Below the pieces are notes generated by a model, which saw nothing but the letters and a program-made list of their open reading frames with translations, had not been told where the DNA came from and searched no databases. This document shows, piece by piece, positions 1,609-58,597 of a stretch of DNA of 64,000 nucleotides. Location of the stretch: IMG/VR virus record IMGVR_UViG_3300027782_000065, positions 17,664 to 81,663 of that record. One strand, given 5' to 3'. How positions within the stretch are numbered: position 1 is the stretch's first letter; each line of letters starts with the position of its first letter. The stretch is from a virus. Taxonomy: Duplodnaviria > Caudoviricetes. The position numbers and the translations under genes are program-made.

Positions 1609-2844
1609 TTAAAATGCAAGAGTATCGAATTGAAAATATCTATTATAAGCACTGTTATAATTATTAGAAACAATTAAACTTTCTTGATTATTTGAAAATG
1701 CCATGCCTGTACCAACGTACAAAGAAGCCTCTTGTTGGCTAAATGCATTAAGATAACCAAGTGTTTTATATTGTCCAACATAAAGATAACTATTATATGT
1801 TGCAGTAGTTATATCCCAAGCAGCAGAAAGATTATATACATATAAAGCTCCACCATAATTTCTACCAAGAAGATAAAGTGTGGTTCCATCAGAACTAAAT
1901 GAAATTGACACAAGATAATTTTTACCATCAGCAAAATCCCTTGATCCTGCCGCAGATAAATTAGCACCATCAGATCCTATATCCCAAGAAGAAGAAATAT
2001 TGGATTGATATAATACATCACCTCTCAAATAATATAATCTACTTCCATCTGGTTTGACAAAAATATCTCGCATTTTTATCTTGGTTGTATCATATGCATT
2101 AAGTGCTTGTGGACCTCCAAACGTAGCAGTTGATACTTTAACAGATTCTGTGTCTAGTGCATATTTTCTATCTGGTGCGTAACTATAAGCGACAGGAACG
2201 GAGTTAGTATATATATTATAAGTAACACCATCCAAAGTGAAAGATGAGTTGGTATTCATTGAATTTAAATTCCATGCAGTATTAAGATTATATTGGAATA
2301 TAAATGGACCATAGTAATAAAAATTTTGACTTCCACCAAAACCATAAAAAACACGTATAAGATTTCCACAAATAATTAATCTTGTTCCATCTGGTTTAAA
2401 TGAAATTCCGGAAGGTTCTGGATAAATTACAGTATAACTAGCACCACCCTCTGATGATGTTCCCATTTTTAAATATTTTCTATTATAAGTTGTAGATGCT
2501 GAAATTGATTCGATGCTCCCATTATTCAGAGGCATTGATGTAATAGAATTGTCAGCACTAGGATACTCATAAAATGGATCAGCATTTGCACCAGTTACAA
2601 ATAATGTTGAATCATCTGGTTTAACAAACATTCCAGTTACAGTACCCGGATTATTATTATATACCGAATCACTACAATCAGTATAAAAAAGATGTTTTAA
2701 ATTATCTTGTTTAGCATAATTTTGTATGTAAGCATTATCTTCTGGACGATACATTCCAGATTTATATCGCCTTTGTGCCCGACTATCTACGGGAGCAGTA
2801 TAATCAGAACCAATTCGACTAAGAGTACTTCTTTGAGGGCTCAT
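1609..2844 (-). CDS. beta-propeller-like virion/tail-tip protein, paralog of 352..1602
   Basis: Repeats FKPDGTRL, FVKPDGSRLY, FSSDGTTLY and LNTAWNL, SSSWDI, LSAAWDITTA. Confidence 0.6.
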   Translation of the reverse strand: MSPQRSTLSRIGSDYTAPVDSRAQRRYKSGMYRPEDNAYIQNYAKQDNLKHLFYTDCSDSVYNNNPGTVTGMFVKPDDSTLFVTGANADPFYEYPSADNSITSMPLNNGSIESISASTTYNRKYLKMGTSSEGGASYTVIYPEPSGISFKPDGTRLIICGNLIRVFYGFGGSQNFYYYGPFIFQYNLNTAWNLNSMNTNSSFTLDGVTYNIYTNSVPVAYSYAPDRKYALDTESVKVSTATFGGPQALNAYDTTKIKMRDIFVKPDGSRLYYLRGDVLYQSNISSSWDIGSDGANLSAAGSRDFADGKNYLVSISFSSDGTTLYLLGRNYGGALYVYNLSAAWDITTATYNSYLYVGQYKTLGYLNAFSQQEASLYVGTGMAFSNNQESLIVSNNYNSAYNRYFQFDTLAF

Positions 2845-3224
2845 GGTGGGTTTGAAATTTTCTCATAAGAAACTATGACATCAATATAATTTGTATTTCC
2901 GGCAGATGCTCTTATAGACCAACCTTCTTCTAGATAAAAATAAGTTTCTTTTGTAGAAATAATTTGTGTAGCATCTGGTGGAACATTGATGGTACTTGCA
3001 AGATAATGATCATTAGTGCCAGATGGGCCTGTCCCATACAGGGATATGCTGATTGTTGTGAAACTAGCCCCATTTGTATTTGCGGCAAAAATACTATTAA
3101 TTTTATAAACTTCTCCACTTGCAGCACCATTTGCTAAAACTGCTGTTAGACCAGTAGGAACGTTTTTATATACTGCAGTTTTTCCAATAAGGCTACTTGG
3201 ATTTCTAATATTAGGTGCTGCCAT
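2841..3224 (-). CDS. small beta-rich virion protein (MAAPNI family, putative adaptor)
   Basis: Clear paralog of 53360..53734 (MAAPNI..., KINSIFAAN/KVNTLLASN, DVIVSYEKIS/DIVASYETIS). Confidence 0.6.
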   Translation of the reverse strand: MAAPNIRNPSSLIGKTAVYKNVPTGLTAVLANGAASGEVYKINSIFAANTNGASFTTISISLYGTGPSGTNDHYLASTINVPPDATQIISTKETYFYLEEGWSIRASAGNTNYIDVIVSYEKISNPP

Positions 3225-3245
3225 TTTTTTATAGTCTTATGAGAT

Positions 3246-3252
3246 TATTTAT
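3246..3252 (-). promoter_or_regulatory. T4-type late promoter (ATAAATA)
   Basis: ATAAATA about 22 nt upstream of the 2841..3224 start. Confidence 0.55.
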
Positions 3253-3263
3253 TATTAAAAGCA

Positions 3264-6200
3264 TCAAAATAACATTGCCAAAATAACCAAACTAACGTCA
3301 TCGGAAGCAGCAAGACCTTGAGTAGATTGAACCCCTTGAAGTCCTTGAGTACCCTGATTATTACTTAATGGTCCTTGAAGTCCTTGAGTACCTTGATTAC
3401 TTAAACCTTGTAGTCCTTGTAGTCCTTGAGTACCTTGGGCATTCTGAACACCTTGAGCACCTTGAGCACCTTGAGCACCTTGAAGTCCTTGAGTACCTTG
3501 AGTACCTTGAAAATTACTTAAAGAACCTTGTAATCCTTGCAATCCTTGAGAACCCTGAAGTCCTTGTCTTCCTTGAAGTCCTTGAGTACCTTGATTACTT
3601 AAACCTTGAAGTCCTTGAAGTCCTTGAGAACCTTGAAGTCCTTGAGAACTTTGAAGCCCCTGTGTTCCTTGTCTTCCTTGAGTACCTTGAGCACCTTGAG
3701 TACCTTGAGCACCTTGAGTACCTTGGTTATCACTTAAAGCACCTTGAAGACCTTGAGTACCTTGAGATCCTTGTCTTCCTTGAGTACCTTGAAAATTACT
3801 TAAAGAACCTTGTAATCCTTGCAATCCTTGAGAACCTTGGAGTCCTTGAGAACCTTGAAGTCCTTGTCTTCCTTGAAGTCCTTGAAGTCCCTGATTACCT
3901 TGAGTACCTTGAGCACCTTGAGTACCTTGGTTATCACTTAAAGCACCTTGAAGTCCTTGTCTTCCTTGAAGTCCTTGAGTACCTTGAGCATTCTGAACAC
4001 CTTGAGCACCCTGAGTACCTTGAGCACCTTGAGAACCTTGAAGTCCTTGTCTTCCTTGAGAACCTTGATTACTTAAACCTTGTAGTCCTTGAAGTCCTTG
4101 AAGTCCCTGATTACCTTGTGTTCCCTGTTCCCCCATTGGACCAAATCCAACAGAATTTAAACTTGAAAATTCTTTAAAGGAACTGTCAAGATACAGTGGA
4201 ATTCCAATAGATCTTTCCGTGGTTCTGATACCCACACCATCTTTCCAATATCTAACATTATATCCATCATAGGTAATACTGACAACTGTTGAAGTAGTAT
4301 AAGATCCATGTGAATATAATGTTGAACCAAATTGATCAGTTTCATGAATTGCTAATACACCACCCAAACTAAAAAGCCACCCATAATCTATGGTGTTAAA
4401 ATTAGCACTTGTTGTTGGATTTGTATTGAGACCAACCACAATTTCAGCATTTATTTGAGATGCCTTGGCAGTAACATAAACGCCTCTAGTATAACCTTCA
4501 GTTGAATAAACTTGTCCATCAAAAACATTATTGTTTCCATTGGATTTGGTAAAAGTATTACCATTAACAATAACAACACCACCAGTTACATTTGGAGTCC
4601 ATTGGGATGTTCCACTTATACCTTGAGAACCTTGATTACTTAAACCTTGGATACCCTGAAGTCCTTGAGTTCCCTGAGCACCTTGAGAACCCTGAAGTCC
4701 TTGAGTGCCTTGAGCATTCTGAACACCTTGAGCACCTTGAGTACCTTGAGCACCTTGAGTACCTTGAGCACCTTGAGAACCTTGAAGTCCTTGATTACCT
4801 TGAGTACCTTGAGTACCTTGAGTACCTTGAGCACCTTGAGAACCTTGAAGTCCTTGAGCACCTTGAGTACCTTGAGCACCTTGAGTGCCTTGAGTACCTT
4901 GAGCACCTTGAGTACCTTGAGAACCTTGAAGTCCTTGAGTACCTTGGGCATTCTGAACACCTTGAGCACCTTGAGTACCTTGGGCACCTTGAAGTCCTTG
5001 AGTACCTTGAGCATTCTGAACACCTTGAGCACCCATAGGTCCTTGAGCACCCAATGATGAATATACTTGCCACGTAGTTCCATCATAGATAAGATCCAAA
5101 ATTGTATTTCCAATATCAACTGTCAAAACTTCATCAGCATATCCCTCTATTGTATTACCATAAGTAAGGGGATTTATGAGTAAATTATTAACAGTCCAAT
5201 CTGCACCATCAGCAATACGAACTATTGAGGAAACTGTTGGTGATTCTGGAAGAGTTAAGGTAAATGAACCTCCAGAAGTATTTGCAATAATTTGATCTCC
5301 ATCATTCAGGGTATAATCAGCAGTCTTTACTACCCATCCAGAAGGTTTTCCTACAATTCCTTGAATTCCCTGAGAACCTTGTCTTCCTTGAGTACCTTGT
5401 AGTCCTTGAGAACCTTGAATACCTTGTGTTCCCTGAGCACCTTGATTACCTTGCAGTCCTTGAGTACCTTGAGCATTCTGAACACCTTGAGCACCCTGAT
5501 TACCTTGAATACCTTGTGTTCCCTGAGCACCTTGAGAACCTTGAAGTCCTTGAGTTCCCTGCAATCCTTGAGAACCTTGAATACCTTGAGAACCTTGAAG
5601 TCCTTGAGAACCTTGAAGACCTTGATTTCCTTGCAATCCTTGAGAACCTTGAAGTCCTTGAGAACCTTGAAGTCCTTGAGAACCTTGAAATCCAGAACCC
5701 TGAAGTCCTTGAAGACCTTGATTACCTTGGGATCCAGAACCCTGAAGTCCTTGAAGACCTTGATTACCTTGGGATCCAGAACCTTGAAGACCTTGAAGAC
5801 CTTGAGTACCTTGTAATCCTTGAGTACCTTGGGCATTTTGAACACCTTGAGCACCTTGTCTTCCTTGAAGACCTCTGCTTCCCAGATCACCTTGAAGTCC
5901 TTGATCACCTTGAGTACCTTGAAGTCCTTGAGTTCCTTGGAGTCCTTGATTACCTTGAAGACCTTGATTACCTTGGGATCCACCTTCACCAGAACCACCA
6001 GCAAAACCCTGAAGACCTTGAAGTCCTTGAGTACCTTGGGCATTTTGAACACCTTGAGCACCTTGTCTTCCTTGAGGACCTCTGCTTCCTAAATCACCTT
6101 GAAGTCCTTGATTACCTTGTATCCCTTGAGTACCTTGAGCACCTTTTGCACCAACTCCAGATGGAGATATCCAATATCTTTTTCCGGGATATCCATCAAC

Positions 6201-6377
6201 TGCACTTAAAATATATTTTTCTCCACTAGGTGCTGGATTTACACTGACTGAAGAAACACCAACTATAGGATCACCTAAATCTGGTTCTGCCTGTTCCAAT
6301 CCAAGAAATTCATACCTATCAGAGGTAATCCCCGATTGCCCAAATCTTCTTACTCGTCCAGAATTATATCTTACCAT
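3264..6377 (-). CDS. collagen-like (Gly-X-Gln)n fibre protein with three globular inserts, 1037 aa
   Basis: Three GXQ tracts; internal domain TADYTLNDGDQIIANTSGGSFTLTLP resembles T4-like fibre repeats; hydrophobic C-terminus VILAMLF. Confidence 0.8.
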   Translation of the reverse strand: MVRYNSGRVRRFGQSGITSDRYEFLGLEQAEPDLGDPIVGVSSVSVNPAPSGEKYILSAVDGYPGKRYWISPSGVGAKGAQGTQGIQGNQGLQGDLGSRGPQGRQGAQGVQNAQGTQGLQGLQGFAGGSGEGGSQGNQGLQGNQGLQGTQGLQGTQGDQGLQGDLGSRGLQGRQGAQGVQNAQGTQGLQGTQGLQGLQGSGSQGNQGLQGLQGSGSQGNQGLQGLQGSGFQGSQGLQGSQGLQGSQGLQGNQGLQGSQGLQGSQGIQGSQGLQGTQGLQGSQGAQGTQGIQGNQGAQGVQNAQGTQGLQGNQGAQGTQGIQGSQGLQGTQGRQGSQGIQGIVGKPSGWVVKTADYTLNDGDQIIANTSGGSFTLTLPESPTVSSIVRIADGADWTVNNLLINPLTYGNTIEGYADEVLTVDIGNTILDLIYDGTTWQVYSSLGAQGPMGAQGVQNAQGTQGLQGAQGTQGAQGVQNAQGTQGLQGSQGTQGAQGTQGTQGAQGTQGAQGLQGSQGAQGTQGTQGTQGNQGLQGSQGAQGTQGAQGTQGAQGVQNAQGTQGLQGSQGAQGTQGLQGIQGLSNQGSQGISGTSQWTPNVTGGVVIVNGNTFTKSNGNNNVFDGQVYSTEGYTRGVYVTAKASQINAEIVVGLNTNPTTSANFNTIDYGWLFSLGGVLAIHETDQFGSTLYSHGSYTTSTVVSITYDGYNVRYWKDGVGIRTTERSIGIPLYLDSSFKEFSSLNSVGFGPMGEQGTQGNQGLQGLQGLQGLSNQGSQGRQGLQGSQGAQGTQGAQGVQNAQGTQGLQGRQGLQGALSDNQGTQGAQGTQGNQGLQGLQGRQGLQGSQGLQGSQGLQGLQGSLSNFQGTQGRQGSQGTQGLQGALSDNQGTQGAQGTQGAQGTQGRQGTQGLQSSQGLQGSQGLQGLQGLSNQGTQGLQGRQGLQGSQGLQGLQGSLSNFQGTQGTQGLQGAQGAQGAQGVQNAQGTQGLQGLQGLSNQGTQGLQGPLSNNQGTQGLQGVQSTQGLAASDDVSLVILAMLF
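3320..6150. repeat. 9-nt-period coding repeat arrays (about 3320-4130, 4620-5050, 5360-6150)
   Basis: Recurrent ccttgagtac/ccttgaagt/ccttgagcac units, the reverse complement of GXQ codons. Confidence 0.9.
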
Positions 6378-6383
6378 TTTTCA

Positions 6384-6743
6384 CTATTGTTTTGCAGTTT
6401 CTAAAATACTTAATACAAGATTTAAAGCATTATTCGCATTTGCTTTGATTTTAATAACATCATCAGTTTCTAGTGCAAGTCTTCCATCAGAAACTAAATT
6501 TAATCCATCGTTTGATGGAATTGAAATCTCATTTGCAAAAATATAATCTGCCGGTGATTCGCTAGTTCTTGAATGAGTTGCGGTTACAGTATATGTACTT
6601 CTTGCTGCACCAGATGATATATTGCTAACCTGAGATAAAATAACAATAGATGCAACACCTGTTGGACAAGTATAAATCCCAACATTATTGGTTGTAATAC
6701 TAACTCTAATTGTTCGGAACTTATTAAGTGCTACTACTGCCAT
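6384..6743 (-). CDS. small beta-rich virion protein (putative adaptor)
   Basis: 119 aa; IYTCPTG..SIVILSQVSN..LALETDDVIKIKA..LNLVLSILE pattern resembles 57926..58285 and the MAAPNI proteins. Confidence 0.55.
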   Translation of the reverse strand: MAVVALNKFRTIRVSITTNNVGIYTCPTGVASIVILSQVSNISSGAARSTYTVTATHSRTSESPADYIFANEISIPSNDGLNLVSDGRLALETDDVIKIKANANNALNLVLSILETAKQ

Positions 6744-6744
6744 T

Positions 6745-9700
6745 TTAGTTACCTAGTGCAATGATAAGGGGTGTTACTGTATTTAATAAACTTTGACTAA
6801 ATGCTCTACCAGAAATAGTTCCGGTTAATTGATTAATTATAACATCATCTCCGATTTGAAAATTACCAGATTGATTTGTACTAGTATAAATTACTTGTCC
6901 ACCATTTACCTTATAAACCTCATTATCTTGAATAGAAACTCCACCCAAAGCAGGTTTTGCAGTATTAATATTAGTTCCAGATCCAACCCATTCTAATGAT
7001 ATTGATGTTGCAAGTTGCAGACTTAATCTTGAAAAATATGCAGTTGATCCGGCACTAACTGTATTATTTAGATTCTGTGTCAAAACGATTGTAGATATTC
7101 CTGCATTTGGTAATGTTGCACTTTCAATTCCATAATAAATTGGATCCAATACTGGAGATGCTGCAGCATTAGATCCCTCACCACCAGTAATTTGAATATT
7201 TGGATTAGTTAAGTATTGTGATCCAGAACTAATAATATCAATAGAAGTTACTTTTCCACCCGAAATGTTTGCAGATCCTTCTGCCCTAATTCCACTTGGA
7301 CCTGTTGGAGCATCAATTGTTACTATAGGAACTGATGTATAACCAGAACCACCATTAGTTACATCAATTCTCAATATGGAGTAATATAATTTATCAAAAT
7401 AAACTGCCTGACCATCATAAGGACGATTTGATGCAATTCCAGAAATAATTAAAGTATCAGTACCTTGTGATGCAGTCTGTGTTACTATTCCACTATAACG
7501 ATAGATGGATCTTGAAGATGCATCCCCAATTCCATTGGAATATAACCCATAATTACCAAAAGATGCATTAGAATTGGTAATATCACATTGCCCACCACCT
7601 GCAGTATAAACCGCAATATCATCACAAATTGTAAAGAGAGAAACCAACTGAGCATATGCACCATTGGTGATGGATGCACCTATTCCACCTTGATTGTATT
7701 GAGTATATGAATCCAAACTCATAGATCCAGTTACACCAATATCATCTTGATCTCCCGGTTCTGCCTCAAATCCATTAACTTTTAAACCAATACTTTTTGG
7801 TATAAAATTAGTACAGTTTCTGATGTAAGGTCCTTGTGTAATTGGTCCAACACCTGGCGAATAAGTATTTCCTCCAATTTTTGTTGCCGACCAATTATTA
7901 TTTGTTAGTCCATCATATGCTGTAGGATATGTAGTGTTAATTCCTGCACCACCAAGAGCACCCAATCCATCTCTAATAATTGTCGTAACAACACCAACAC
8001 AAGAGTAAATTGCCGATACAACATTTGCACAACCACTTAAACTTTGATTACCATATGCACCATCAGATTGCATACTTAAATCTTTTATTTGTGTATAATT
8101 TCTATAATTTCCACCACCTGGTTTTGTGAAAGAAACATTATTAATACAAGACCTTGCAATTCCGGCAGCATATGTTAGAGCATCCATTGTCTCAGTTTTT
8201 ATTCCAACAATATATTGAAGTACTCCTGCATCTGTATAATATGTCTTACCTGCTCCAACAGATTTAGAGTTTCCACCTCTTGTGATATCAAAACAAACTG
8301 CTTTCAATACTGATTTAATATCTGAGGTTGATACTCCAATTGAAAATGCTGGATTCCTATAATCAGTACTAGTTAAATATCCTACTGTTTCACTCGCAAT
8401 AAAATCTAGATTCATACGAATCATTCTTGCACCATCAAAGAAACGATTTGATGAAACTCCAGATAATGGGCGGAATGCTATAACTGATGCGCCGTTTGTT
8501 GAATCTGGTCCAACAAAACTCAAATCTGTTACGTGACAACTATTATTAACGTGGAATAAATCTAATCCAGAATTTTGTGGCGTAACAATGCAGTTTCTAA
8601 GTTCTGCCCCCTCAACAGAAACACTTTTTTCAAGAATTATTGGATTATTTTCAACATATACTCCAGGAAAAACTTTAATTGTGTCTCCAGAACTTGCAAT
8701 TCCTGCAGCAGATTTAATTGATCTTTTTGGATAATTTTCTGCTAAACCAGTATAACTATCATTGCCATTTTGTGAAACATAGATTGTTTTTCCAATTGGC
8801 GAATATGAATATACTTGAACTCTACCCTTTCCATTTACAGGATCTAATGTAACTCCAATACCAGCAACAATCTGAGTGACAATTCCAACAAGAGTTGCAC
8901 CACTACCATAATAATCAGTTGCTGTTGCAGTTCCAACAACTGTTAAAGTATTTGTTATAACAGTTGTTCCAATTCCAATACTTCCAGTTGATGGATTGAA
9001 GACTAATTTTTCGGATGAAACAAATATTGTTGATATGGATCCACTTGATGCTGTTGAAAGACCAATATATCTCAATTCATTTGATTGATCATTTTGTACT
9101 TTAAATGATTCACTTATATTGGAACCTTGTGTTCCTTGAAGTCCTTGAGTACCTTGTCTTCCTTGAGTACCTTGAAGTCCTTGAGTACCTTGTCTTCCTT
9201 GAGTACCTTGAAGTCCTTGAGTACCTTGAAGTCCTTGTGTTCCCTGAGCACCTTGAGTACCTTGAAGTCCTTGAGCACCTTGAAGTCCTTGAGCACCTTG
9301 AAGTCCTTGTGTTCCCTGAGCACCTTGAGCACCTTGAAGTCCTTGAGTACCTTGAGATCCAGAACCTTGCATACCTTGAAGTCCTTGAGCACCTTGTAGT
9401 CCTTGAGCACCTTGTAGTCCTTGAGCACCTTGTAGTCCTTGAGTACCTTGAGATGCAGAACCTTGCATCCCCTGAAGTCCTTGAGAACCCTGAAGTCCTT
9501 GAGTACCTTGAGCATTCTGAGAACCTTGAAGTCCTTGAGTTCCCTGCAATCCTTGAGAACCTTGAAGTCCTTGAGTTCCCTGCAATCCTTGAGAACCTTG
9601 AATACCTTGAGAACCTTGAGTACCTTGAGAACCTTGAGAACCTTGTAATCCTTGAGAACCTTGAGATCCAGAACCTTGCATCCCCTGAAGTCCTTGAGAA

Positions 9701-11415
9701 CCTTGAAGACCCTGAATACCTTGTAATCCTTGAGTACCTTGCAGTCCTTGAGAACCTTGTAGTCCTTGTATTCCTTGAAGTCCTTGTATTCCTTGAAGTC
9801 CTTGTATTCCTTGAAGTCCTTGAGCACCTTGAAGACCTTGATTGCCTTGAAGACCTTGATTGCCTTGAAGACCTTGATTTCCTTGAGATCCAGAACCTTG
9901 AATACCTTGAAGTCCTTGAAGTCCTTGATTACCTTGATTACCTTGATTACCTTGAGCACCTTGAGTACCTTGAGCACCTTGAGTACCTTGAGCACCTTGA
10001 GAACCTTGAAGTCCTTGATTACCTTGAGTACCTTGAGTACCTTGAGCACCTTGAGCACCTTGAAGACCCTGAGTGCCTTGAAGACCCTGAGTACCTTGAA
10101 TTCCTTGAGTACCTTGAATTCCTTGAGTACCTTGAGCATTCTGAACACCTTGAGCACCCTGGGTGCCTTGAAGTCCTTGCCTCCCTTGAGTACCTTGAGC
10201 ATTCTGAACACCTTGAGCACCCTGGGTGCCTTGAAGTCCTTGTGTTCCCTGAGCACCTTGAGCATTCTGAACACCTTGAGCACCCTGGGTGCCTTGAAGT
10301 CCTTGTGTTCCCTGAGCACCTTGACAACCTTGAAGTCCTTGAGTTCCCTGCAATCCTTGATTACCTTGAAGTCCTTGAGTTCCCTGTAATCCTTGATTAC
10401 CTTGAAGTCCTTGAGTTCCCTGTAATCCTTGAGTTCCCTGCAATCCTTGAGAACCTTGAATGCCTTGAGAACCTTGAATGCCTTGAGCACCTTGAAGTCC
10501 TTGAGTTCCTTGAAGTCCTTGCAATCCTTGAGTACCTTGTAATCCTTGATTACCTTGATTACCTTGATTACCTTGAAGTCCTTGAAGACCTTGAGTGCCT
10601 TGAGTACCTTGGTTATTACTTAAAGCACCTTGAAGTCCTTGAAGTCCTTGAGTACCTTGAAGACCCTGAGTGCCTTGAAGACCCTGAGTACCTTGAATTC
10701 CTTGAGCACCTTGCAATCCTTGAGTACCTTGAGCATTCTGAACACCTTGAGCACCCTGGGTGCCTTGAAGTCCTTGAAGTCCTTGATTACCTTGATTACC
10801 TTGATTACCTTGATTACCTTGATTACCTTGAGCACCTTGCAATCCTTGAGTACCTTGAGCATTCTGAACACCTTGAGCACCCTGGGTGCCTTGAAGTCCT
10901 TGAGCACCTTGCAATCCTTGAGTACCTTGGTTATTGCTTAAAGCACCTTGAAGACCTTGTCTTCCTTGAAGTCCTTGCCTTCCTTGAAGACCTTGAAGAC
11001 CTTGAGTACCTTGAAAATCGCTTAGTGCTCCCTGAACACCCTGACCTGCAAATTGTCCAGCAATTCCCTGATTACTTCTTCCCTGAACACCCTGAGCTCC
11101 CTGATCTCCTCCGCCAGCGCCACCACCACCTCCAGAAGCATAGGCAAGAGCACTCCAAGCAGTTGATCCATCACCAAATTTAAACTTACGAGTATCAGAT
11201 TCAATACCCATTTCACCTGCAAGAAGTACAGGATCTTCATCAATCCATTCTGCTTCAGTTGCATATTTAAGTATAATATGTTGAGCAGTTAAAACACCAT
11301 TAACAACACTAAGTCCTTGAACACCACCAGTTCCAGTGACAGATAGACTATCAACCTCTAAAAAAGAAACATCTTCTGGAGGTCTGTCGGTGTAATAGAC
11401 TTTAATTCTAGTCAT
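6745..11415 (-). CDS. large collagen-like fibre protein: Mtd_N-like N-terminus, about 660-aa GXQ tract, putative beta-helix C-terminal region
   Basis: EWIDEDPVLLAGEMGIESDTRKFKFGDGSTAWSALAY (Mtd_N/hyaluronidase-N-like); IYVSQNGNDSYTG..PKRSIKSAA..GDTIKVFPGVYVE (start typical of pectin-lyase-like folds). Confidence 0.75.
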   Translation of the reverse strand: MTRIKVYYTDRPPEDVSFLEVDSLSVTGTGGVQGLSVVNGVLTAQHIILKYATEAEWIDEDPVLLAGEMGIESDTRKFKFGDGSTAWSALAYASGGGGGAGGGDQGAQGVQGRSNQGIAGQFAGQGVQGALSDFQGTQGLQGLQGRQGLQGRQGLQGALSNNQGTQGLQGAQGLQGTQGAQGVQNAQGTQGLQGAQGNQGNQGNQGNQGNQGLQGLQGTQGAQGVQNAQGTQGLQGAQGIQGTQGLQGTQGLQGTQGLQGLQGALSNNQGTQGTQGLQGLQGNQGNQGNQGLQGTQGLQGLQGTQGLQGAQGIQGSQGIQGSQGLQGTQGLQGTQGLQGNQGLQGTQGLQGNQGLQGTQGLQGCQGAQGTQGLQGTQGAQGVQNAQGAQGTQGLQGTQGAQGVQNAQGTQGRQGLQGTQGAQGVQNAQGTQGIQGTQGIQGTQGLQGTQGLQGAQGAQGTQGTQGNQGLQGSQGAQGTQGAQGTQGAQGNQGNQGNQGLQGLQGIQGSGSQGNQGLQGNQGLQGNQGLQGAQGLQGIQGLQGIQGLQGIQGLQGSQGLQGTQGLQGIQGLQGSQGLQGMQGSGSQGSQGLQGSQGSQGTQGSQGIQGSQGLQGTQGLQGSQGLQGTQGLQGSQNAQGTQGLQGSQGLQGMQGSASQGTQGLQGAQGLQGAQGLQGAQGLQGMQGSGSQGTQGLQGAQGAQGTQGLQGAQGLQGAQGLQGTQGAQGTQGLQGTQGLQGTQGRQGTQGLQGTQGRQGTQGLQGTQGSNISESFKVQNDQSNELRYIGLSTASSGSISTIFVSSEKLVFNPSTGSIGIGTTVITNTLTVVGTATATDYYGSGATLVGIVTQIVAGIGVTLDPVNGKGRVQVYSYSPIGKTIYVSQNGNDSYTGLAENYPKRSIKSAAGIASSGDTIKVFPGVYVENNPIILEKSVSVEGAELRNCIVTPQNSGLDLFHVNNSCHVTDLSFVGPDSTNGASVIAFRPLSGVSSNRFFDGARMIRMNLDFIASETVGYLTSTDYRNPAFSIGVSTSDIKSVLKAVCFDITRGGNSKSVGAGKTYYTDAGVLQYIVGIKTETMDALTYAAGIARSCINNVSFTKPGGGNYRNYTQIKDLSMQSDGAYGNQSLSGCANVVSAIYSCVGVVTTIIRDGLGALGGAGINTTYPTAYDGLTNNNWSATKIGGNTYSPGVGPITQGPYIRNCTNFIPKSIGLKVNGFEAEPGDQDDIGVTGSMSLDSYTQYNQGGIGASITNGAYAQLVSLFTICDDIAVYTAGGGQCDITNSNASFGNYGLYSNGIGDASSRSIYRYSGIVTQTASQGTDTLIISGIASNRPYDGQAVYFDKLYYSILRIDVTNGGSGYTSVPIVTIDAPTGPSGIRAEGSANISGGKVTSIDIISSGSQYLTNPNIQITGGEGSNAAASPVLDPIYYGIESATLPNAGISTIVLTQNLNNTVSAGSTAYFSRLSLQLATSISLEWVGSGTNINTAKPALGGVSIQDNEVYKVNGGQVIYTSTNQSGNFQIGDDVIINQLTGTISGRAFSQSLLNTVTPLIIALGN
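9120..11100. repeat. about 2-kb 9-nt-period GXQ coding array
   Basis: Continuous ccttg-based 9-mers. Confidence 0.9.
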
Positions 11416-38371: not shown

Positions 38372-38372
38372 A

Positions 38373-46883: not shown

Positions 46884-46887
46884 AGTT

Positions 46888-50973: not shown

Positions 50974-50994
50974 ACTTTTTACAAATTTAATATC

Positions 50995-51023
50995 AGTATA
51001 TCATATTTAAACTCATTTGTCCA
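50995..51023 (-). promoter_or_regulatory. sigma70-type promoter heading the glycosylation island
   Basis: TGGACA, 17 nt, TG-a-TATACT; the spacer also holds a late-like TTAAATA. Confidence 0.6.
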
Positions 51024-51414
51024 TTACACGCTGTTTCAAATCCCATTCAAGATTTTCTTCATTCCATTCATAATAATACATATTATTTTTTTGTTCTTCG
51101 GTAAGTTTTGGTTCTGGAACAGAAGATTCCCAATCATAAGTTTCTATATTTAAAACCCAAGATGAATATGGTTTAGGTAATAGAAATACATTATGCTCTT
51201 CATTATAGGTCATTCCAATTCCAGCATAACGACATCTAAAGGAATTATTATAGGATGTCTGTTTCCATTTAGTAGTTGCCCCAAATAATTTCTTACAAAA
51301 TCCAATACCAATTTCTTCAACCTCATTTCCATTTAGGTCGGAGGTATCGTCATTTGATACAACAATTACTTGTTTAACTATATTATTTTCATCCAATTCT
51401 GCAAAATGTGCCAT
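51013..51414 (-). CDS. conserved phage protein (MAHFA family), paralog of 55631..56023
   Basis: MAHFAELDENN.V..V.VV..WKQTSYNNSFRCRYAGIGM.Y..FL..PY.SW.LN...W. Confidence 0.75.
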   Translation of the reverse strand: MAHFAELDENNIVKQVIVVSNDDTSDLNGNEVEEIGIGFCKKLFGATTKWKQTSYNNSFRCRYAGIGMTYNEEHNVFLLPKPYSSWVLNIETYDWESSVPEPKLTEEQKNNMYYYEWNEENLEWDLKQRVMDK

Positions 51415-52415: not shown

Positions 52416-53354
52416 TTAAGAATATACATATCGAACAATTACAATTCCAGAACCACCTGCCGATCCCAGACCGCCATCGCTTCCACCACCCCCACCAGAT
52501 CCAGTATTAATTTTTCCAGGAGATCCAGAATCACCTTGACCACCCCCATTTCCTCCGCCGCCGCTGCCACCAAGTGCTGGAGTATTAAAACCAGGATCTC
52601 CGCCGCCAGCTCCACCACCAGCAAACCAACGTCCAGCAGTAGGTCCAGGCATTCCATAAGCACCAGGTAATCCAGTATCACCACTAAAAGCAGTCTTACC
52701 TGCACCACCTGCGCCACCAGTTGATGATGATGGACTAGTAGATTCACCTGAACCTCCTGCTCCTCCACCACCACCAGCTGGATTAAATGTAGGAGAATTT
52801 CCACCAGGAGTTCCTTGTGGCGGTGATACAGCTGGAACATTTCCAGATCCACCAAGTGATGTTCCCGTTGCACCATCCCCAGCACCGCCGCCCGATCCAC
52901 CTGAAGTTCCATTACCATTTGGAACTCCTCCACCTCCACCTGTCTGAGAAGTTATAGTAGTAAATAAAGGAGGTCCTCCAATAGAAGAATTAGATCCTGC
53001 ACCACCTACAGTGATTGTATATACACCTGATCCAAGTTGAATTGTTGAGCTCCTAAAACCACCTGCTCCGCCACCGCCCCCACCGCCAAAAGAAGGAGGA
53101 GAAGGAGATCCAGCACCTGCTCCACCACCAGCAATTACAAGATATTCAACAGAACCACCACTATTTACAGTTAGTGTTCCAGTGCTTCCAAAAACATGAT
53201 ACCTATAACCATTTCCCGGAATATGAGGTGTTCCTCCTGCTATATCAATTCTATTCCAAATATTTGTTTTCTTAAGAACTTGCTGAGATAAACTATTAAA
53301 AAATCCACCATTATCTGGAGATGCGCCAACAAAATTACCAATATCTCTAGTCAT
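52416..53354 (-). CDS. glycine-rich domain virion protein
   Basis: YHVFGSTG..VEYLVIAGGG..NTGSGGGG..GGSGIVIVRY. Confidence 0.7.
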   Translation of the reverse strand: MTRDIGNFVGASPDNGGFFNSLSQQVLKKTNIWNRIDIAGGTPHIPGNGYRYHVFGSTGTLTVNSGGSVEYLVIAGGGAGAGSPSPPSFGGGGGGGAGGFRSSTIQLGSGVYTITVGGAGSNSSIGGPPLFTTITSQTGGGGGVPNGNGTSGGSGGGAGDGATGTSLGGSGNVPAVSPPQGTPGGNSPTFNPAGGGGGAGGSGESTSPSSSTGGAGGAGKTAFSGDTGLPGAYGMPGPTAGRWFAGGGAGGGDPGFNTPALGGSGGGGNGGGQGDSGSPGKINTGSGGGGGSDGGLGSAGGSGIVIVRYVYS

Positions 53355-53359: not shown

Positions 53360-53734
53360 TTAACTAATAGTCTCATAAGATGCGACAATATCAATAGAAT
53401 TTGCAGTTCCAGCAATTGCTCCTATTGAACGATTTTCTTCAATATAAACTGGCGTATCTTTTCCAATAAGTGCTAATGTAGATCCAGAAGGAACTGCGAT
53501 TGTGGTTCCTATTGAAACAGAAGTTCCAGCACCTGCAGATGCTCCAAAAAATTTAACCGTAATATTTGCAGAAGTTGCTGTAATATTAGATGCAAGCAAT
53601 GTATTAACCTTCAATACAGTATTACTTGATGAAGCATTAGAAATAATTACAGATGGTGATGTAGTACTAATACCTCCAACAAAAGTAGTAATTCCAATAA
53701 TTGAGGTTACATTGACAATATTTGGTGCTGCCAT
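53360..53734 (-). CDS. small beta-rich virion protein (MAAPNI family, putative adaptor)
   Basis: Paralog of 2841..3224. Confidence 0.65.
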   Translation of the reverse strand: MAAPNIVNVTSIIGITTFVGGISTTSPSVIISNASSSNTVLKVNTLLASNITATSANITVKFFGASAGAGTSVSIGTTIAVPSGSTLALIGKDTPVYIEENRSIGAIAGTANSIDIVASYETIS

Positions 53735-53767: not shown

Positions 53768-53977
53768 TTATCCAGGAGTCAACCAAGCAAGCATTGAAAG
53801 ACCCCTTCTATTCGCAGAATAGATTCCTTGAGTACCCTGTCCAAGATCTCCGCCACCAAGACCTTGAACTGCCTGCGTTCCTTGAAAACTTTGAATACCT
53901 TGAATACCTTGAAAACTTTGAAGACCTTGAAGACCCCTATTATTTGATGCTAGATATGCGGATAAAGATGTTGGCAT
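53768..53977 (-). CDS. 69-aa mini-collagen
   Basis: MPTSLSAYL cap, short GXQ tract, GLSMLAWLTPG tail. Confidence 0.7.
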   Translation of the reverse strand: MPTSLSAYLASNNRGLQGLQSFQGIQGIQSFQGTQAVQGLGGGDLGQGTQGIYSANRRGLSMLAWLTPG

Positions 53978-53993
53978 TTTTATTAGAACTAAC

Positions 53994-54203
53994 TTATGAT
54001 GGAGATAACCAAGAAATTACAGCAAGACCCATATCAGATCTTCCTTGAACACCCTGCGTTCCTTGAATATCATATGATCCTATTGTACCTTGTAACCCTT
54101 GTAACCCTTGAAGACCTTGAATACCTTGAAGACCTTGAGTACCTTGAAGACCTTGAAGTCCAGTATATGTTGTTCCTAAAAAACTAGATAAAGAAGTTGG
54201 CAT
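53994..54203 (-). CDS. 69-aa mini-collagen, paralog of 53768..53977
   Basis: MPTSLSSFL cap, about 12 GXQ triplets, GLAVISWLSPS tail; ATAAATA late promoter at 54225-54231. Confidence 0.7.
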   Translation of the reverse strand: MPTSLSSFLGTTYTGLQGLQGTQGLQGIQGLQGLQGLQGTIGSYDIQGTQGVQGRSDMGLAVISWLSPS

Positions 54204-54232: not shown

Positions 54233-54952
54233 TTATCGAGAAGCATCAAATGCACATTGAGAGCGTTGTCCATCAGCAAGAACATAATGAAAAAAGACTT
54301 GGTGATAATAAAGTCCTTCTTTTTCTACTCTTTTTCCATACCAAGTTCTCTTATATTCAGTTGGCATAAAATCTCTCCAATGAGGTCTTTCGCACCCCTT
54401 ATAAATCATTCCATCACCAACAGATAAAATTACAGAACGATTTTCACCTTTTTTTGAGATAATTGTTTTATTTTTATCTGTATATGTATCTGGAGTTTTA
54501 ATCCATATAGGCCAAGGTTCTTTGAGATTTGTACTGATATGAACTGTCACCGAAATTTCACAAGCATCACGATCTGCGTGACGTGTTAATTCTTGTCCTG
54601 GAAAATAAAAACGATCATAATAATAAGTATTATAAAGTTTTCTTCCAAGAATTTTTTCTAATTTTAAACGAACACCCGAATGAATTGAACGATATTGTGG
54701 ATGCCAGTAACAAGCAAGAGACCCTTCCACTTGCTGTTCTAATTCATAATGAGTAAATTGATCTAATTTTTTACCCCAATAATTAATTTGTCCTCTTTCA
54801 TCTGAAACAGGACGATAAAGTTCTTGGGAATCCCATAAGTTTTTTACAACTAAGTATCCATCTTTATCAAATTGTTCGTTACGAGTCCAAGTAGTTCCAG
54901 TGTTAAGTCTCTCTTGGTAGAAGAGTTGCTCTTCTGTCATTTGTTCTGCCAT
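54233..54952 (-). CDS. 2OG-Fe(II) oxygenase-like protein (start MAEQM at 54952)
   Basis: RFY..GQEL..HADR..CEIS.T....GDG.IYKGC..PHWR..QVFFHYV. Confidence 0.75.
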   Translation of the reverse strand: MAEQMTEEQLFYQERLNTGTTWTRNEQFDKDGYLVVKNLWDSQELYRPVSDERGQINYWGKKLDQFTHYELEQQVEGSLACYWHPQYRSIHSGVRLKLEKILGRKLYNTYYYDRFYFPGQELTRHADRDACEISVTVHISTNLKEPWPIWIKTPDTYTDKNKTIISKKGENRSVILSVGDGMIYKGCERPHWRDFMPTEYKRTWYGKRVEKEGLYYHQVFFHYVLADGQRSQCAFDASR

Positions 54953-54953
54953 A

Positions 54954-55574
54954 CTATTTCCACCTCGGACCAACAACCCATCCAACAAGACTCTTACGAG
55001 TTCCCTTTGTAACTTTAAGAACCCGATGTTGAGTTCGAGAATCAAAAATAATTACAGTCCCTCTTTTTCTTGGTGCAAAATAAGACTTTCCATCTTCTGC
55101 AAGAAGTTGAAGATTTCCACCCTCATAATCATCAGGGTCTGAAAGTTGAACTACAAAGGAAAGTTTTCTGACAAGTTCTAAATTCTCATTTAAGTAATCC
55201 TGTGCTCTTCCTTCGTGATGATTTCCAACAGAAACTGGTTTATAATGACCCGCAATACCAGCATCATTATGCCACCCATAAAATTCACCCTCATCATATT
55301 GAGTGAATTGCATAGATTCACCGTCAATATTTCTTATATCGTAAAGAAAATTTTCACGATTTGCTCTTTCTACATAATGCCAAACAAATCCCGCAGTCCA
55401 ATGACTTGTTGGAATCCAGGCATTTTTTGAGTTTCTTTTATCCCGATTAAGGGCATCTCCCATAAGTTTGGAGTCCCCCATTTGCGATTGAAACTTATCC
55501 GTTAAATCTTCTTCTATTGTTCTTACAATTTTTTCTGGAATATCACTGAAATGCCAGATTGACTGGAATGCCAA
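54954..55574 (-). CDS. 2OG-Fe(II) oxygenase (PKHD/prolyl-hydroxylase-like), TTG start
   Basis: QFTQY..FYGWHND..RKLS....LS...YEGG.L..GT.IIFDS...HRV..VTKG.RKSLVGW; AGGAG SD. Confidence 0.85.
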   Translation of the reverse strand: MAFQSIWHFSDIPEKIVRTIEEDLTDKFQSQMGDSKLMGDALNRDKRNSKNAWIPTSHWTAGFVWHYVERANRENFLYDIRNIDGESMQFTQYDEGEFYGWHNDAGIAGHYKPVSVGNHHEGRAQDYLNENLELVRKLSFVVQLSDPDDYEGGNLQLLAEDGKSYFAPRKRGTVIIFDSRTQHRVLKVTKGTRKSLVGWVVGPRWK

Positions 55575-55605: not shown

Positions 55606-55634
55606 ACTATATATCAATTCTATAAAAATGTCAA
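55606..55634 (-). promoter_or_regulatory. sigma70-type early promoter for the 2OG oxygenase pair
   Basis: TTGACA (55634-55629), 17 nt, TATAGT (55611-55606). Confidence 0.75.
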
Positions 55635-56023: not shown

Positions 56024-56038
56024 ATAAACTTAACCTCC

Positions 56039-57922
56039 TTATTCTGGGTATTGAATAATTACAATGCCTGAACCACCAGTTCCAGCAGTAAGTCCTCCAG
56101 CGGATGGTCCTCCAGCACCCCCACCACCACCAGTGTTTGCTGTAGCTGGTCTGGGAGTTGAAGGAGCTCCAGCGCCTCCACCACCTGATGCAGGTGCTGC
56201 TCCACCTGGATAACCTCCTCCTCCACCAGCAAAATATCTTCTTCCTACTACTGGTCCAGATGTTCCATATGCAGGTGGGGATATAACCGAATACCATCCA
56301 TCCCCACCTGGTGTTGGCATTGACCCACCATAACTTCCTGCTCCCCCACCAGCACCTCCACTTGCAACTGCTGGGAATACAGTTGAACCACCAGTATTAC
56401 CCTGAGTCGCAGGGGAGGGAGTCGCAGTACCACCTGAAGCAGATGGAGTAATGGCAGTTTTAGCTCCCCCACCACCCGATCCGCCCGCACCTCCAGTAGT
56501 TACAGTTGGAGCGCCATTAGCTCCTCCTCCTCCACCATATGCTATAATTTGAGTAGGACCTGGGGCACCAATAGTGGTTGGAGTACCTGTAGTACCAGTT
56601 CCTCCTGCCGTTCCACCACCTGCCCCTCCAGGTCCTATAGAAACTGGATAAGATGTAGCAGACACAGGCATTCTTTCTCCCGTTTGAATAGAATATCCAG
56701 GATTCCAAGGATATGCTTCTGGAATAGTAGTTGGAGTAGTATTTGAAGAGTGAATAGAAGTTACAAATCCTCCGGCACCACCACCTCCTCCTGCAGATGG
56801 TGCTGGTGCTCCTCCTCCCCCACCACCACCACCAACAGCCAAATAATCAATCCATTGAAGAGATGGATCAGTAACTGTGAAAGTTCCTGGTGTTGTAAAG
56901 ATATGTCTCCATACTCCTGGATGATTTGGATCAGTATTAGGTTCTATAGTACCTCCTGTGGCTCTTGAGTATGCTGAAGGTTTCAGGTATCTTATGCAAA
57001 CAATTCCCGATCCGCCAGCGGCGCCAGAAGTACTTCCATCAGCTCCATATCCCGTATTTGCTACGGCAGTCCTTTGTTGTGGTGCTGGAACTGGACCTCC
57101 ATATCCACCAGAAGCAAAACCACTAAGATCGATCAAGGGATACCAAGTAGGGTAATTTGCAGTAGGTATTGCCGGTCCAAGAGCACTTGTTGGAAAATTT
57201 GGTTCAATTCTTCCTGGACCTCTAGTCCCACCGATGTTCGGTGCAGAACCTCCGTTTCCTATACCCCCTGCACCACCACCACCTCCGCTACCTCCGGTGG
57301 CAGGACCACCGGAACCTCCGGAATATCCTTGTCTAGGAATTGTTGGTGGAGTATCACCAGGTCCTACTCCGATTGGAGTTACAATTCCACCTTGACCACC
57401 TCCACCTGAACCTCCCGAACCTGCAGCACCCCCAACTGCTGGAGAACCGGAGTAGCTGGATCCACCTCCACCGCCTGCAGCAGTCAATCCAAATGCAGTT
57501 GAGGGACTTCCGTTTCTAGGAGTTCCTGGAGCTCCAGGACTGGATGGTCCACCACCACCAACGGTGATTGGATAAGAACCAGGAGTATTTGATACTGTTG
57601 CCTGTCCAAATAAAAATCCTCCACCACCTCCTCCTCCGCCGCTCAGGAGTTGGGGGCCCGCACCACCACCCCCAGCAACAATCAAATATTCAACACTATC
57701 AATTATAGTAGGTGGACTTGTAACTGTAAAAGTTCCGTCACTAATAAAAATGTGATAGACGTATCCATCACCCGCATCAAAGACAGTTCCACCAGTACCA
57801 TAAGGATTTAATCCAGGAGCATTTTCTGAAGTGTAAAAATCACGATTTTTTCCACTTGCTCTATATTTTGTTGTTACTGGACCTGGACTCCAATTACCAG
57901 ATTTCGAACTTTTACCTGCCAC
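56039..57922 (-). CDS. tandem double glycine-rich domain virion protein
   Basis: Two copies of H.F...GTFTV..(E/D)YL.V.GGG...(NT/GY)G.G..GGSGIV.I.Y; Pro-rich. Confidence 0.7.
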   Translation of the reverse strand: MAGKSSKSGNWSPGPVTTKYRASGKNRDFYTSENAPGLNPYGTGGTVFDAGDGYVYHIFISDGTFTVTSPPTIIDSVEYLIVAGGGGAGPQLLSGGGGGGGGFLFGQATVSNTPGSYPITVGGGGPSSPGAPGTPRNGSPSTAFGLTAAGGGGGSSYSGSPAVGGAAGSGGSGGGGQGGIVTPIGVGPGDTPPTIPRQGYSGGSGGPATGGSGGGGGAGGIGNGGSAPNIGGTRGPGRIEPNFPTSALGPAIPTANYPTWYPLIDLSGFASGGYGGPVPAPQQRTAVANTGYGADGSTSGAAGGSGIVCIRYLKPSAYSRATGGTIEPNTDPNHPGVWRHIFTTPGTFTVTDPSLQWIDYLAVGGGGGGGGAPAPSAGGGGGAGGFVTSIHSSNTTPTTIPEAYPWNPGYSIQTGERMPVSATSYPVSIGPGGAGGGTAGGTGTTGTPTTIGAPGPTQIIAYGGGGGANGAPTVTTGGAGGSGGGGAKTAITPSASGGTATPSPATQGNTGGSTVFPAVASGGAGGGAGSYGGSMPTPGGDGWYSVISPPAYGTSGPVVGRRYFAGGGGGYPGGAAPASGGGGAGAPSTPRPATANTGGGGGAGGPSAGGLTAGTGGSGIVIIQYPE

Positions 57923-57925
57923 TTA

Positions 57926-58285
57926 TCAAGCCTCCCTATCTCCAAGAATTAAAACATTAATTGCAGTTGTAGCACTTGTATTAGCAATCTGAATAGTGTC
58001 ATTATTAGTTGATAATGTAATAGGATATGCAAGTTCAAAGAAATAAGTATCTACTGGTTGAATTGAAAGTTGTGCAAGTTGATTAATCGAACTTGCTGTT
58101 CCCGCACTTACACCAAAAGCTGGAACAACATGAATTTTTACAGTACTTGTAACTGTAGAATCAATATTATGAATGACTACTGAACGAATATAAGCAGTCT
58201 TTGCTGAACCTACAGTATAAACTGTGGATGTAGTTGATGTTCCAACTCTTGTAACTGTTGTTAGTCCTACCTTTGCAAGTGCCAT
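57926..58285 (-). CDS. small beta-rich virion protein (putative adaptor)
   Basis: VYTV.S.K.AYIRSVVIHN..ITL.TNND.IQI..INVLILGDRE; resembles 6384..6743. Confidence 0.6.
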   Translation of the reverse strand: MALAKVGLTTVTRVGTSTTSTVYTVGSAKTAYIRSVVIHNIDSTVTSTVKIHVVPAFGVSAGTASSINQLAQLSIQPVDTYFFELAYPITLSTNNDTIQIANTSATTAINVLILGDREA

Positions 58286-58309
58286 TATATTATTTTACTT
58301 ATTGAATAT

Positions 58310-58597
58310 TTATGCGAATAACATCACTTCTAGTATATCAATACTAGAACCACCCCCAGAAGCAGTGGAATTGATAGTTACTTGTCCAGTACTTGCAGAA
58401 ACACTAATATTACTACCAGCAACAATAGAAGTTACAATACCAGTTAAATTAGTACCAGAACCACTAAATGAAGTAGCAGTTACAATTCCAACAACATTTG
58501 CACCAGAAGAACTTAAGGTTACGGCAGAACCTACAACAACACTCGTATCAATCGTTGCTGTTCCGTAAATTCTTGTACCAGATTTAAGTTTTGCCAT
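58310..58597 (-). CDS. short fibre-like protein with hydrophobic C-terminal tail
   Basis: VGIVTATSFSGSGTNLTGIVTSIVAG (similar segment in 6745..11415); ends ILEVMLFA. Confidence 0.6.
   Translation of the reverse strand: MAKLKSGTRIYGTATIDTSVVVGSAVTLSSSGANVVGIVTATSFSGSGTNLTGIVTSIVAGSNISVSASTGQVTINSTASGGGSSIDILEVMLFA

Follow-up and report, generated by a model that had tools for sequence, protein, structure and literature searches.

The subject of this study is a 64-kb stretch of viral DNA (the window), the right-hand part of an 81.6-kb phage contig from IMG/VR, and within it four genes for small beta-rich proteins, each of which directly follows a gene for a fibre or collagen-like stalk. These four proteins form one superfamily of jellyrolls of approximately 110-135 residues. 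Each subfamily co-varies with a hydrophobic tail at the C-terminus of the upstream stalk and with a peptide at the N-terminus of the protein encoded downstream, and this three-way coupling survives the exchange of both flanking bodies. For this reason, and because several orthogonal versions coexist in one genome and a homologue in one phage bears a virion label, a structural joint is the simplest reading, and we consider that the small jellyrolls probably serve as structural connectors in segmented phage fibres. The connector family has no name and is very abundant in ocean phages; the segmented, adaptor-joined fibres to which it would belong are themselves a known principle. In the literature that we searched, no description of the connector families or of the coupling rule was found.

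Gene modules of the window

The window (G+C approximately 35%) has its relatives among marine Synechococcus and Prochlorococcus phages, and the minus strand holds nearly all of its genes, including all the genes discussed here as modules. Baseplate genes are located at approximately 12-17 kb, among them one with a gp5 OB domain (15358-15846). A sequence-only reading of the window had described a four-fold repeated module of fibre, small adaptor and tip genes. The genes, lengths, coordinates and C-terminal tails that it gave are all present among the open reading frames (ORFs) of the window, and the MAHFA-family genes with which it had two of the modules close (B and C below) both match phrog_7759. 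The modules are given below in gene order, with protein lengths in amino acids (aa); in chain A, the gaps between the first four genes are 1, 6 and 39 nucleotides (nt). F1, F2 and F3 denote the sequence families of the small jellyrolls, which for brevity are called connectors. The N-terminal peptides of downstream proteins are called docking peptides, and were searched for with hidden Markov models (HMMs). Models made with AlphaFold2 (AF2) are given with their predicted local distance difference test (pLDDT) value.

Chain A
6745..11415 (-): proximal stalk, 1556 aa, with collagen repeats (PF01391, E 7.5e-86) and an Mtd_N domain; F3-type tail ...TPLIIALGN
6384..6743 (-): F3 jellyroll connector, 119 aa, matching the N-terminal part of phrog_1276
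3264..6377 (-): second stalk, 1037 aa, collagen (PF01391, E 2.5e-78); F1-type tail ...SLVILAMLF; its N-terminus is an F3-class docking peptide, MVRYNSGRVRRF..ITSDRYEFLGLEQAEPDLGDP (docking HMM E 4e-28)
2841..3224 (-): F1 (MAAPNI) jellyroll connector, 127 aa (F1 HMM E 3e-50)
1609..2844 (-): tip 1, 411 aa, propeller-like repeats, F1-class N-terminal peptide (docking HMM E 0.0077, rank 3 of the contig ORFs)
352..1602 (-): tip 2, 416 aa, a weak paralogue of tip 1 (docking HMM E 0.19, rank 4)

Module B
53994..54203 (-): mini-collagen stalk a, 69 aa, tail ...LAVISWLSPS (Collagen PF01391, E 1.3e-6, 28.5 bits with a cut-off of 27.2)
53768..53977 (-): mini-collagen stalk b, 69 aa, tail ...LSMLAWLTPG (weak PHROG fibre matches alone)
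53360..53734 (-): F1 jellyroll connector, 124 aa (AF2 model with nine strands, pLDDT 90.7)
52416..53354 (-): Gly_rich_2 tip, 312 aa, F1-class docking peptide (PF21722, 35.7 bits; docking HMM E 5.4e-5, rank 1 of the contig ORFs)
51430..52404 (-): Gly_rich_2 tip, 324 aa, F1-class docking peptide (PF21722, 35.1 bits; docking HMM E 6.5e-5)
51013..51414 (-): MAHFA protein, 133 aa, candidate chaperone of the Gly-rich tips (phrog_7759)

Module C
58310..58597 (-): stub stalk, 95 aa, F2-type tail ...SSIDILEVMLFA, ending ILEVMLFA (tail as in loci L004-L011)
57926..58285 (-): F2 jellyroll connector, 119 aa (phrog_20100; AF2 model, pLDDT 90.8)
56039..57922 (-): double Gly_rich_2 tip, 627 aa, GTG start (PF21722 in two stretches, 130.4 bits, E 1.3e-37); its N-terminus, (V)AGKSSKSGNWSPGP..YRASGKNRDFYTSENAPG, corresponds to the DILEVMLFA-subclade docking peptide by comparison with L004-L011
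55631..56023 (-): MAHFA protein, 130 aa (phrog_7759)

All three Gly-rich proteins lie above the gathering threshold of PF21722 Gly_rich_2 (24.3 bits). An ATG-only gene call shrinks the double Gly-rich tip to 210 aa, with loss of its docking peptide. Tips 1 and 2 share 24% identity (E 6e-4) and SPDGT...WD-type repeats, and their propeller fold is putative. An arrangement homologous to that at tip 1 is present in locus L205, and a homologue of tip 2 comes after an F1 gene in locus L211.

A single superfamily of small jellyrolls

By sequence, the four small proteins belong to three families: F1 (2841-3224 and 53360-53734, which are clear paralogues with 36% identity, E 2e-21), F2 (57926-58285) and F3 (6384-6743). 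BLASTP detected no relation among the three families, and comparisons of shallow four-sequence profiles or of top-hit-only alignments were not significant, except for a weak F1-F3 signal with the top-hit alignments. With diverse alignments, F3 matched F1 (86%, E 5e-6) and F2 (78%, E 2e-5) over the full length. When 126 representatives at no more than 50% identity were combined into a broad F3 profile, this again matched both families over the full length in hhalign (F1, 97.2%, E 4.4e-11; F2, 87.1%, E 4e-6). The homology of the small proteins, which the sequence-only reading had left to a profile search, was thus recovered, and F1 and F2 have a fold in common as well.

The 81.6-kb contig contains exactly four members of the superfamily. 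In public data, clustering at 90% identity gave at least 7987 clusters for F1, at least 5470 for F2 and at least 826 for F3, none of them with a Pfam domain; the F3 family counts 1123 representatives. None of the four window proteins matched Pfam or NCBIfam, and the PHROG families that they do match have no assigned function. A search of the protein Atlas gave unnamed viral clusters alone, and a sequence search of the PDB with the F3 profile gave no match.

The AF2 models of F1 (53360-53734) and F2 (57926-58285), made as monomers, are both eight- to nine-stranded jellyrolls with overlapping nearest solved folds (7a02, 8pdz, 7dou_4, 7cz6 and 3x0t). These nearest folds are Ena subunits, the KHP40 cement trimer, a totivirus protrusion and PirA, and heads of the TNF/C1q type rank lower. 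The fold of F3 was assigned through a match of the F2 model to the predicted structure of the S-SCSM1 F3 protein in BFVD, with a template modelling (TM) score of 0.59-0.62. A single complex prediction with three copies of the F2 connector and three of the 95-aa stub scored 0.07 (mark, 0.32) and weighs neither way on binding.

F3-type jellyrolls also occur with large inserted domains. In metagenomic F3 relatives the first or the last jellyroll strand stays terminal and the insertions measure 500-1300 residues. Across these relatives and PSSM2_022 of phage P-SSM2, which has an insertion of approximately 200 residues before the last strand, the range is 200-1300 residues, and some insertions resemble annotated cyanophage virion structural proteins. 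Two kinds of insertion are seen in the variants (P0442, P0456, P0469, P0491, P0506; P0443, P0473, P0493; PSSM2_022 at L226:7001-7993): helical repeats after the first strand, and repeats of the motif F-T-C..D....H.YPR..DP before the last strand. Such insertions indicate that the jellyroll is also a scaffold for the display of other domains. Tandem double-jellyroll connectors were found as well (P0366, P0504 and P0372, the last with an insertion in its first copy).

Three interpretations of these proteins were considered and rejected. The long proteins are not stalk-connector or connector-tip (Rosetta-stone) fusions, as their sequences contain one jellyroll with a large inserted domain. P0372, which matched in three stretches, is not a single-chain trimer but the tandem double jellyroll with an insertion. 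Finally, the connector is not a TNF-like half that became separated from a Pam3-type tip, since Gly_rich_2 already covers the entire sandwich-plus-glycine unit.

The tail of the upstream stalk

We inspected the neighbours of F1, F2 and F3 homologues in the window and in 223 IMG/VR loci. The next upstream gene, at a gap of 0-40 nt, ends in a hydrophobic tail of approximately ten residues, the motif of which is set by the connector family. The F1 tails read ...GKAIAMAIVFG, ...IMTAMIWG or ...VILAMLF, and the F3 tails ...TPLIIALG(x) or ...SLGLAIALGG. For F2 we found ...DITASLF(x), ...ELDAALFN, ...DILEVMLFA, ...VLKAMLFV and ...DTWLYGGG, with D-x-x-x-LF as the general form. With patterns made by hand, the family-specific tail was present on the upstream gene in 76 of 83 cases for F1, 55 of 65 for F2 and 100 of 100 for F3 across the 223 loci (231 of 248 in total), and nine further F2 upstream genes end in ...LF. 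Only 10 of the 1591 other ORFs of the same loci have a tail pattern. In the contig, three ORFs alone bear such a tail, and these are the ones that precede F3, F1 (2841) and F2. The proportions of 231/248 and 10/1591, together with the three tailed ORFs of the contig, indicate that the pairing of tail and connector is beyond chance.

The tailed stalks range from 60 to more than 1300 aa and are collagen-like, beta-structured or Gly-linked. The tail of the stub (58310-58597) is found in L004-L011 on stalks whose length runs from 90 to more than 1324 aa, and that of the proximal stalk (6745-11415) also on S-SKS1 SWZG_00012, P-SSM2 PSSM2_021 and S-SCSM1 gp026. The hydrophobic tail first noticed in the window is therefore kept in other genomes, where it co-varies with the connector family.

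The N-terminal peptide of the downstream protein

Coupling also exists on the downstream side, which is a new observation, absent from the sequence-only reading. The first 40 residues or so of the downstream gene product are specific to the connector family and subclade. After F1 they read MPRGNGGIIGPANIPT..KGVWSL.EQ or MAKGKGGFIGQDGLNAPD, and after F3, M.KYNSGRVKRF.Q.GITSDRYEFLGLEQAEPDLGDP or MADRNGYIGRAPGDS. After F2 there are six N-terminal classes, which correspond nearly one-to-one to six tail classes. These F2 classes track the connector tree, with 8 label changes compared to 33 when shuffled. Docking-peptide HMMs were built from other loci alone and then run on the approximately 100 ORFs of the contig. 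The four best ORFs for the F1-class model were the two Gly-rich tips of module B (E 5e-5 and 7e-5) and the two propeller-like tips of chain A (E 0.008 and 0.19), and the F3-class model picked out the second collagen stalk (3264-6377).

The bodies on either side are exchanged independently of this coupling. Between L130 and L090, identity is 75% in the tail, 81% in the connector and 78% in the N-terminal peptide, compared to 21% in the stalk body and 11% in the tip body. Pairs in which the tag-connector-tag unit is kept and the bodies are unrelated number 284 for F1 stalks, 111 for F1 tips and 1221 for proteins downstream of F3, and the boundaries of conservation around the unit are sharp. The sequence-only reading as a whole is borne out in part. 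Its proposal that the adaptor recruits interchangeable tips is newly and strongly supported by N-termini that co-vary with the adaptor on unrelated bodies, but what F3 would recruit is another stalk.

The N-terminus of the stub (58310-58597), MAKLKSGTR..., resembles the F3-class docking peptide MAKLISGRLK... of L005, which follows an F3 gene. The stub itself adjoins no F3 gene, and its match to the F3-class docking HMM (E 0.41) is not significant. Judging from this resemblance, the stub might dock on the sole F3 connector of the contig, 51 kb away, which would create a branched joint.

Chains, cultured phages and the virion

F3 almost always precedes another stalk, and this stalk ends in an F1- or F2-type tail. 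This indicates that the system builds chains, in the order stalk, F3, stalk, F1 or F2, and tip. One such chain in L005 consists of a stalk, F3, a 251-aa stalk, F2 and a Gly-rich tip. The cyanophage Bellamy has gene 29, gene 30 (a longer form of F3), gene 31, gene 32 (F2), gene 33 (Gly-rich) and gene 34 (MAHFA), and holds three more modules with different tag classes. The orthogonal pairs in this one genome are thus genes 31/32, 36/37, 39/40 and 42/43. Other cultured phages, among them the cyanophages S-SKS1, P-SSM2 and S-SCSM1, carry the following arrangements.

S-SKS1: syntenic with positions 2841-11415 of the window
P-SSM2: PSSM2_021 (...TPLILALR), PSSM2_022 (F3 jellyroll) and PSSM2_023 (MSKRYLSGRVKR...), which are T4-GC 18-20, beside the baseplate hub
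S-SCSM1: gp026 (...TPFILALGGN, virion tail fibre), gp027 (F3, E 2e-32) and gp028 (virion tail fibre)
Pelagiphage HTVC033P: fibre (...GKAIAMAIVFG), F1, Gly-rich, MAHFA, Gly-rich
Freshwater phage DSL-LC04: short stalk (...GKSIAMAMIFGF), F1 (annotated 'putative lectin'), Gly-rich tip

The modules had been read from the window as a possible virion decoration system. Their context is more specific than generic decoration, namely that of baseplate and tail fibre, as indicated by the gp5 OB domain here and by T4-GC 18-20 of P-SSM2 ('tail fiber'). The record of S-SCSM1 names gp027 'virion protein' and the neighbouring gp030 'hypothetical'. The authors of that genome identified 45 proteins by mass spectrometry of CsCl-purified particles, 13 of them of unknown function.

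MAHFA proteins follow Gly-rich tips also in Bellamy (gene 34), HTVC033P (gp63) and S-SM1 (SSM1_050). They have no match in the PDB or Pfam and their PHROG family has no assigned function; a PDB sequence search with the Gly-rich tip was likewise empty. By analogy of position with Pam3 gp25, the MAHFA proteins at the end of the Gly-rich modules probably act as chaperones of the tips.

In S-SM1, the first 50 kb contain no F1-F3 member. T4-GC 347 of this phage was tried as a connector and rejected, not being an F1-F3 member. It is a seemingly unrelated small protein (140 aa) in an analogous post-fibre position, for which 32 peptide counts in virions have been reported (Sullivan 2010, Table S8). 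SSM1_043-SSM1_047 of the same phage (L227:25688-31521) comprise a fibre and then small proteins, T4-GC 347 among them, with another motif, RP..P..G.LRFNTD..EYY.

A probable structural joint and its alternatives

As a structural joint, each connector subfamily would recognise two tags: the hydrophobic C-terminal tag, about ten residues long, of an upstream stalk that is presumably trimeric and often collagen-like, and the N-terminal peptide, about 40 residues long, of one or more downstream proteins. The tail would physically insert into the connector. Binding would then be direct, the connector itself would be trimeric, and it would remain in the virion between stalk and tip. Gene order would mirror the order of assembly. 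The baseplate-proximal stalk (6745-11415) would be capped by the F3 connector, which would carry the second stalk (3264-6377), in turn capped by the F1 connector bearing one or both propeller-like tips. Two further short stalks would bear F1 or F2 connectors with Gly_rich_2 tips of the polyglycine, adhesin-like type. Since the connector would have to match the tags only, stalk and tip bodies could be exchanged by recombination.

The main rival to a structural joint is a fibre-assembly chaperone or trimerisation clamp, which would grip the three stalk tails, register the chains and then be released or partly retained, without bearing load; perhaps it could also hold the incoming N-termini. The strict coupling to the upstream tail fits this role equally well, as does the position directly after the fibre gene, the two genes being 0-40 nt apart in the window and the 223 loci. 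Collagen-like stalks without a globular C-terminal domain require a nucleation site, and Pam3 gp25, a protein with a beta-sandwich, associates 3:3 with its fibre and has been proposed to depart before maturation (PMC9608196). However, a chaperone of the upstream stalk alone would not need the downstream N-terminal peptide to co-vary as well. Moreover, the F3 homologue of S-SCSM1 carries a virion-protein label, the jellyroll has variants with large structural insertions, and no match to a described chaperone family (Tfa, gp38/gp57-type or Pam3 gp25-type) was found in Pfam, PHROGs or NCBIfam. We regard the chaperone explanation as unlikely.

Some of our findings do weigh against a structural joint. 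The gene directly after a fibre gene occupies the classical position of a fibre chaperone, as does Pam3 gp25 (PMC9608196). Tag, connector and tag form one contiguous unit of approximately 520 nt, so linkage and common descent account for part of their co-variation. The tails of the module B mini-collagens (...AVISWL.. and ...MLAWL..) are atypical for F1 and fit the pattern loosely, and a direct comparison of the F1 and F2 profiles gave E 0.07, so that these two families are joined solely via F3. The virion status of gp027 is the label of its depositors, and Table S1 lists ORF27 as hypothetical. As hypothetical is all that this homology table gives, the label most likely reflects detection by mass spectrometry.

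A further explanation makes the jellyroll a terminal receptor-binding knob, lectin-like and of the TNF/C1q type, with the downstream genes encoding independent fibres or adhesins attached elsewhere. Trimeric jellyroll lectins (the N-terminal domain of BC2L-C, PLTL), phage needle knobs, C1q and the collagen VIII NC1 heads are indeed among the fold neighbours, and the DSL-LC04 homologue is annotated as a putative lectin. The subfamilies are nevertheless conserved (mean column identity 47-71%) rather than hypervariable like the usual receptor-binding heads, the downstream N-termini follow the connector subfamily, and the stalk after F3 keeps its N-terminus even where its body differs, all of which makes a knob improbable. 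A DNA-level recombination cassette, providing shared homology for module exchange without specific protein contacts, would suit three contiguous elements with sharp conservation boundaries, but it is very hard to reconcile with protein-level conservation among members only 30-50% identical, well under what homologous recombination needs, with several distinct and non-interchangeable tag classes in one genome, and with a small gene that encodes a well-folded domain under clear constraint.

Returning to the structural joint, its widest form would be a general, orthogonal tag-socket-tag code in aquatic phages, in which each subfamily reads a C-terminal tag of approximately 10 and an N-terminal tag of approximately 40 residues. 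We advance this code tentatively, and give it somewhat less than an even chance. If it is true, a single virion could build between four and six distinct fibres, chained or branched, and could fit one stalk with alternative tips; both here and in HTVC033P, one connector is followed by two tips that share a tag. Host range would evolve via body swaps between fixed tags, and the pairs could be used as natural programmable couplers in phage-fibre engineering. The wider relevance lies in how cyanophages and pelagiphages, which rank with the most abundant viruses in the sea, build and diversify their host-recognition apparatus. A readable tag rule, if true, would make fibre architecture and branching predictable from sequence and would account for the independent shuffling of stalk length and adhesin type. 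It would also aid the annotation of thousands of 'hypothetical' phage genes and would yield concrete pairs.

Neighbouring genes

A 98-aa ORF (61683-61979, minus strand) begins 4 nt after the gene for a 509-aa collagen protein (61984-63513, ending ...NSLDFVAG) and precedes that for a 1016-aa virion structural protein (58601-61651, phrog_5838). It falls outside F1-F3 and matched no family, and it may represent another type of small joint or partner.

The interval between modules B and C (54233-55574, minus strand) holds two genes, one of which encodes a 2-oxoglutarate/Fe(II) (2OG-Fe(II)) oxygenase (PF13640, E 2e-15). Such oxygenases flank the modules also in Bellamy (genes 45, 46 and 48), HTVC033P (gp60-61), DSL-LC04 and S-SM1. 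Collagen-like substrates have been predicted for some bacterial oxygenases of this kind (PMC2938197), and the phage enzymes could hydroxylate collagen-like or Gly-rich fibre proteins. Upstream of module B (38000-51000, minus strand) are about a dozen putative sugar-modifying or glycosyltransferase genes, one of which matches a 'beta-mannosyltransferase' of DSL-LC02. These genes could glycosylate the fibres.

Comparison with known systems

The nearest solved folds of the connectors are the small jellyrolls Ena1B/2A/3A (7a02, 9i0y, 8pdz) and the trimeric cement protein of KHP40 (7dou_4), with Z 8.8-9.3 and TM 0.52-0.60; in these proteins an N-terminal arm makes inter-subunit contacts. The connectors do not appear to be Ena proteins: there was no match to Pfam DUF3992, the N-terminal arms of the window proteins contain no Cys, and the context differs. 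In C1q/TNF proteins and in the NC1 domains of collagens VIII and X (1o91, 5hzf), a collagen stalk likewise ends in a jellyroll that forms trimers and sets the register of the three chains. Stalk and jellyroll are fused in those proteins, whereas here the jellyroll is a separate protein, which would be reached via a ten-residue tag and would carry a further protein. The fold similarity to C1q/NC1 (Z 6.7-7.5, with 7.2-7.5 for 1o91 and 5hzf) is in the generic jellyroll range. In the Bacillus exosporium, small jellyroll trimers of ExsFA/BxpB (7r5i, 9h3d, 8d02) hold the collagen-like BclA or the F-Ena anchor via a short terminal peptide. That system belongs to a bacterial spore surface and its anchoring peptide is N-terminal. 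The exosporium structures match the F1 model weakly in fold (Foldseek E 0.008-0.009), and no sequence relation was found.

Among phage fibres, gp24 of cyanophage Pam3 has a receptor-binding part in which a TNF-like sandwich bears a glycine-rich lattice. The gene of its partner gp25 lies downstream of that for the whole fibre; gp25 possesses a helical trimerisation domain, shields the receptor-binding loops and, as has been proposed, is then released (PMC9608196). The same architecture as in gp24 is expected for the Gly_rich_2 tips, whose kind has been shown to bind receptors in Pam3 gp24 and S16 gp38. The connectors resemble gp25 as small beta-sandwich proteins encoded beside a fibre, gp25 binding its fibre 3:3. 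They differ from it in being all-beta, in being encoded between stalk and tip and in their co-variation with the neighbour on each side; in addition, one homologue bears a virion-protein annotation.

The T4-type long tail fibre is composed of gp34-gp35-gp36-gp37, with the gp38 adhesin in T2 and S16. Small joint proteins and non-covalently attached adhesins are thus an established principle. Like that fibre, the system described here has separately encoded segments, a gene order that would equal the fibre order, and small proteins as probable joints. The S16 gp38 is a Gly-rich receptor-binding adhesin, as cited in PMC9608196. A distal glycine-rich (polyglycine-II) adhesin, non-covalently attached to the end of a trimeric stalk, would be a further common trait, deduced here from the genes alone. 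The connectors matched none of the families of the T4 gp35/gp36 joint in Pfam, PHROGs or NCBIfam, and the likeness is one of function and gene order. What sets our system apart from the T4-type fibre is the nature of the proposed joint, a jellyroll of 110-135 aa coupled to a hydrophobic C-terminal tag and an N-terminal docking peptide, and its presence in several orthogonal versions per genome.

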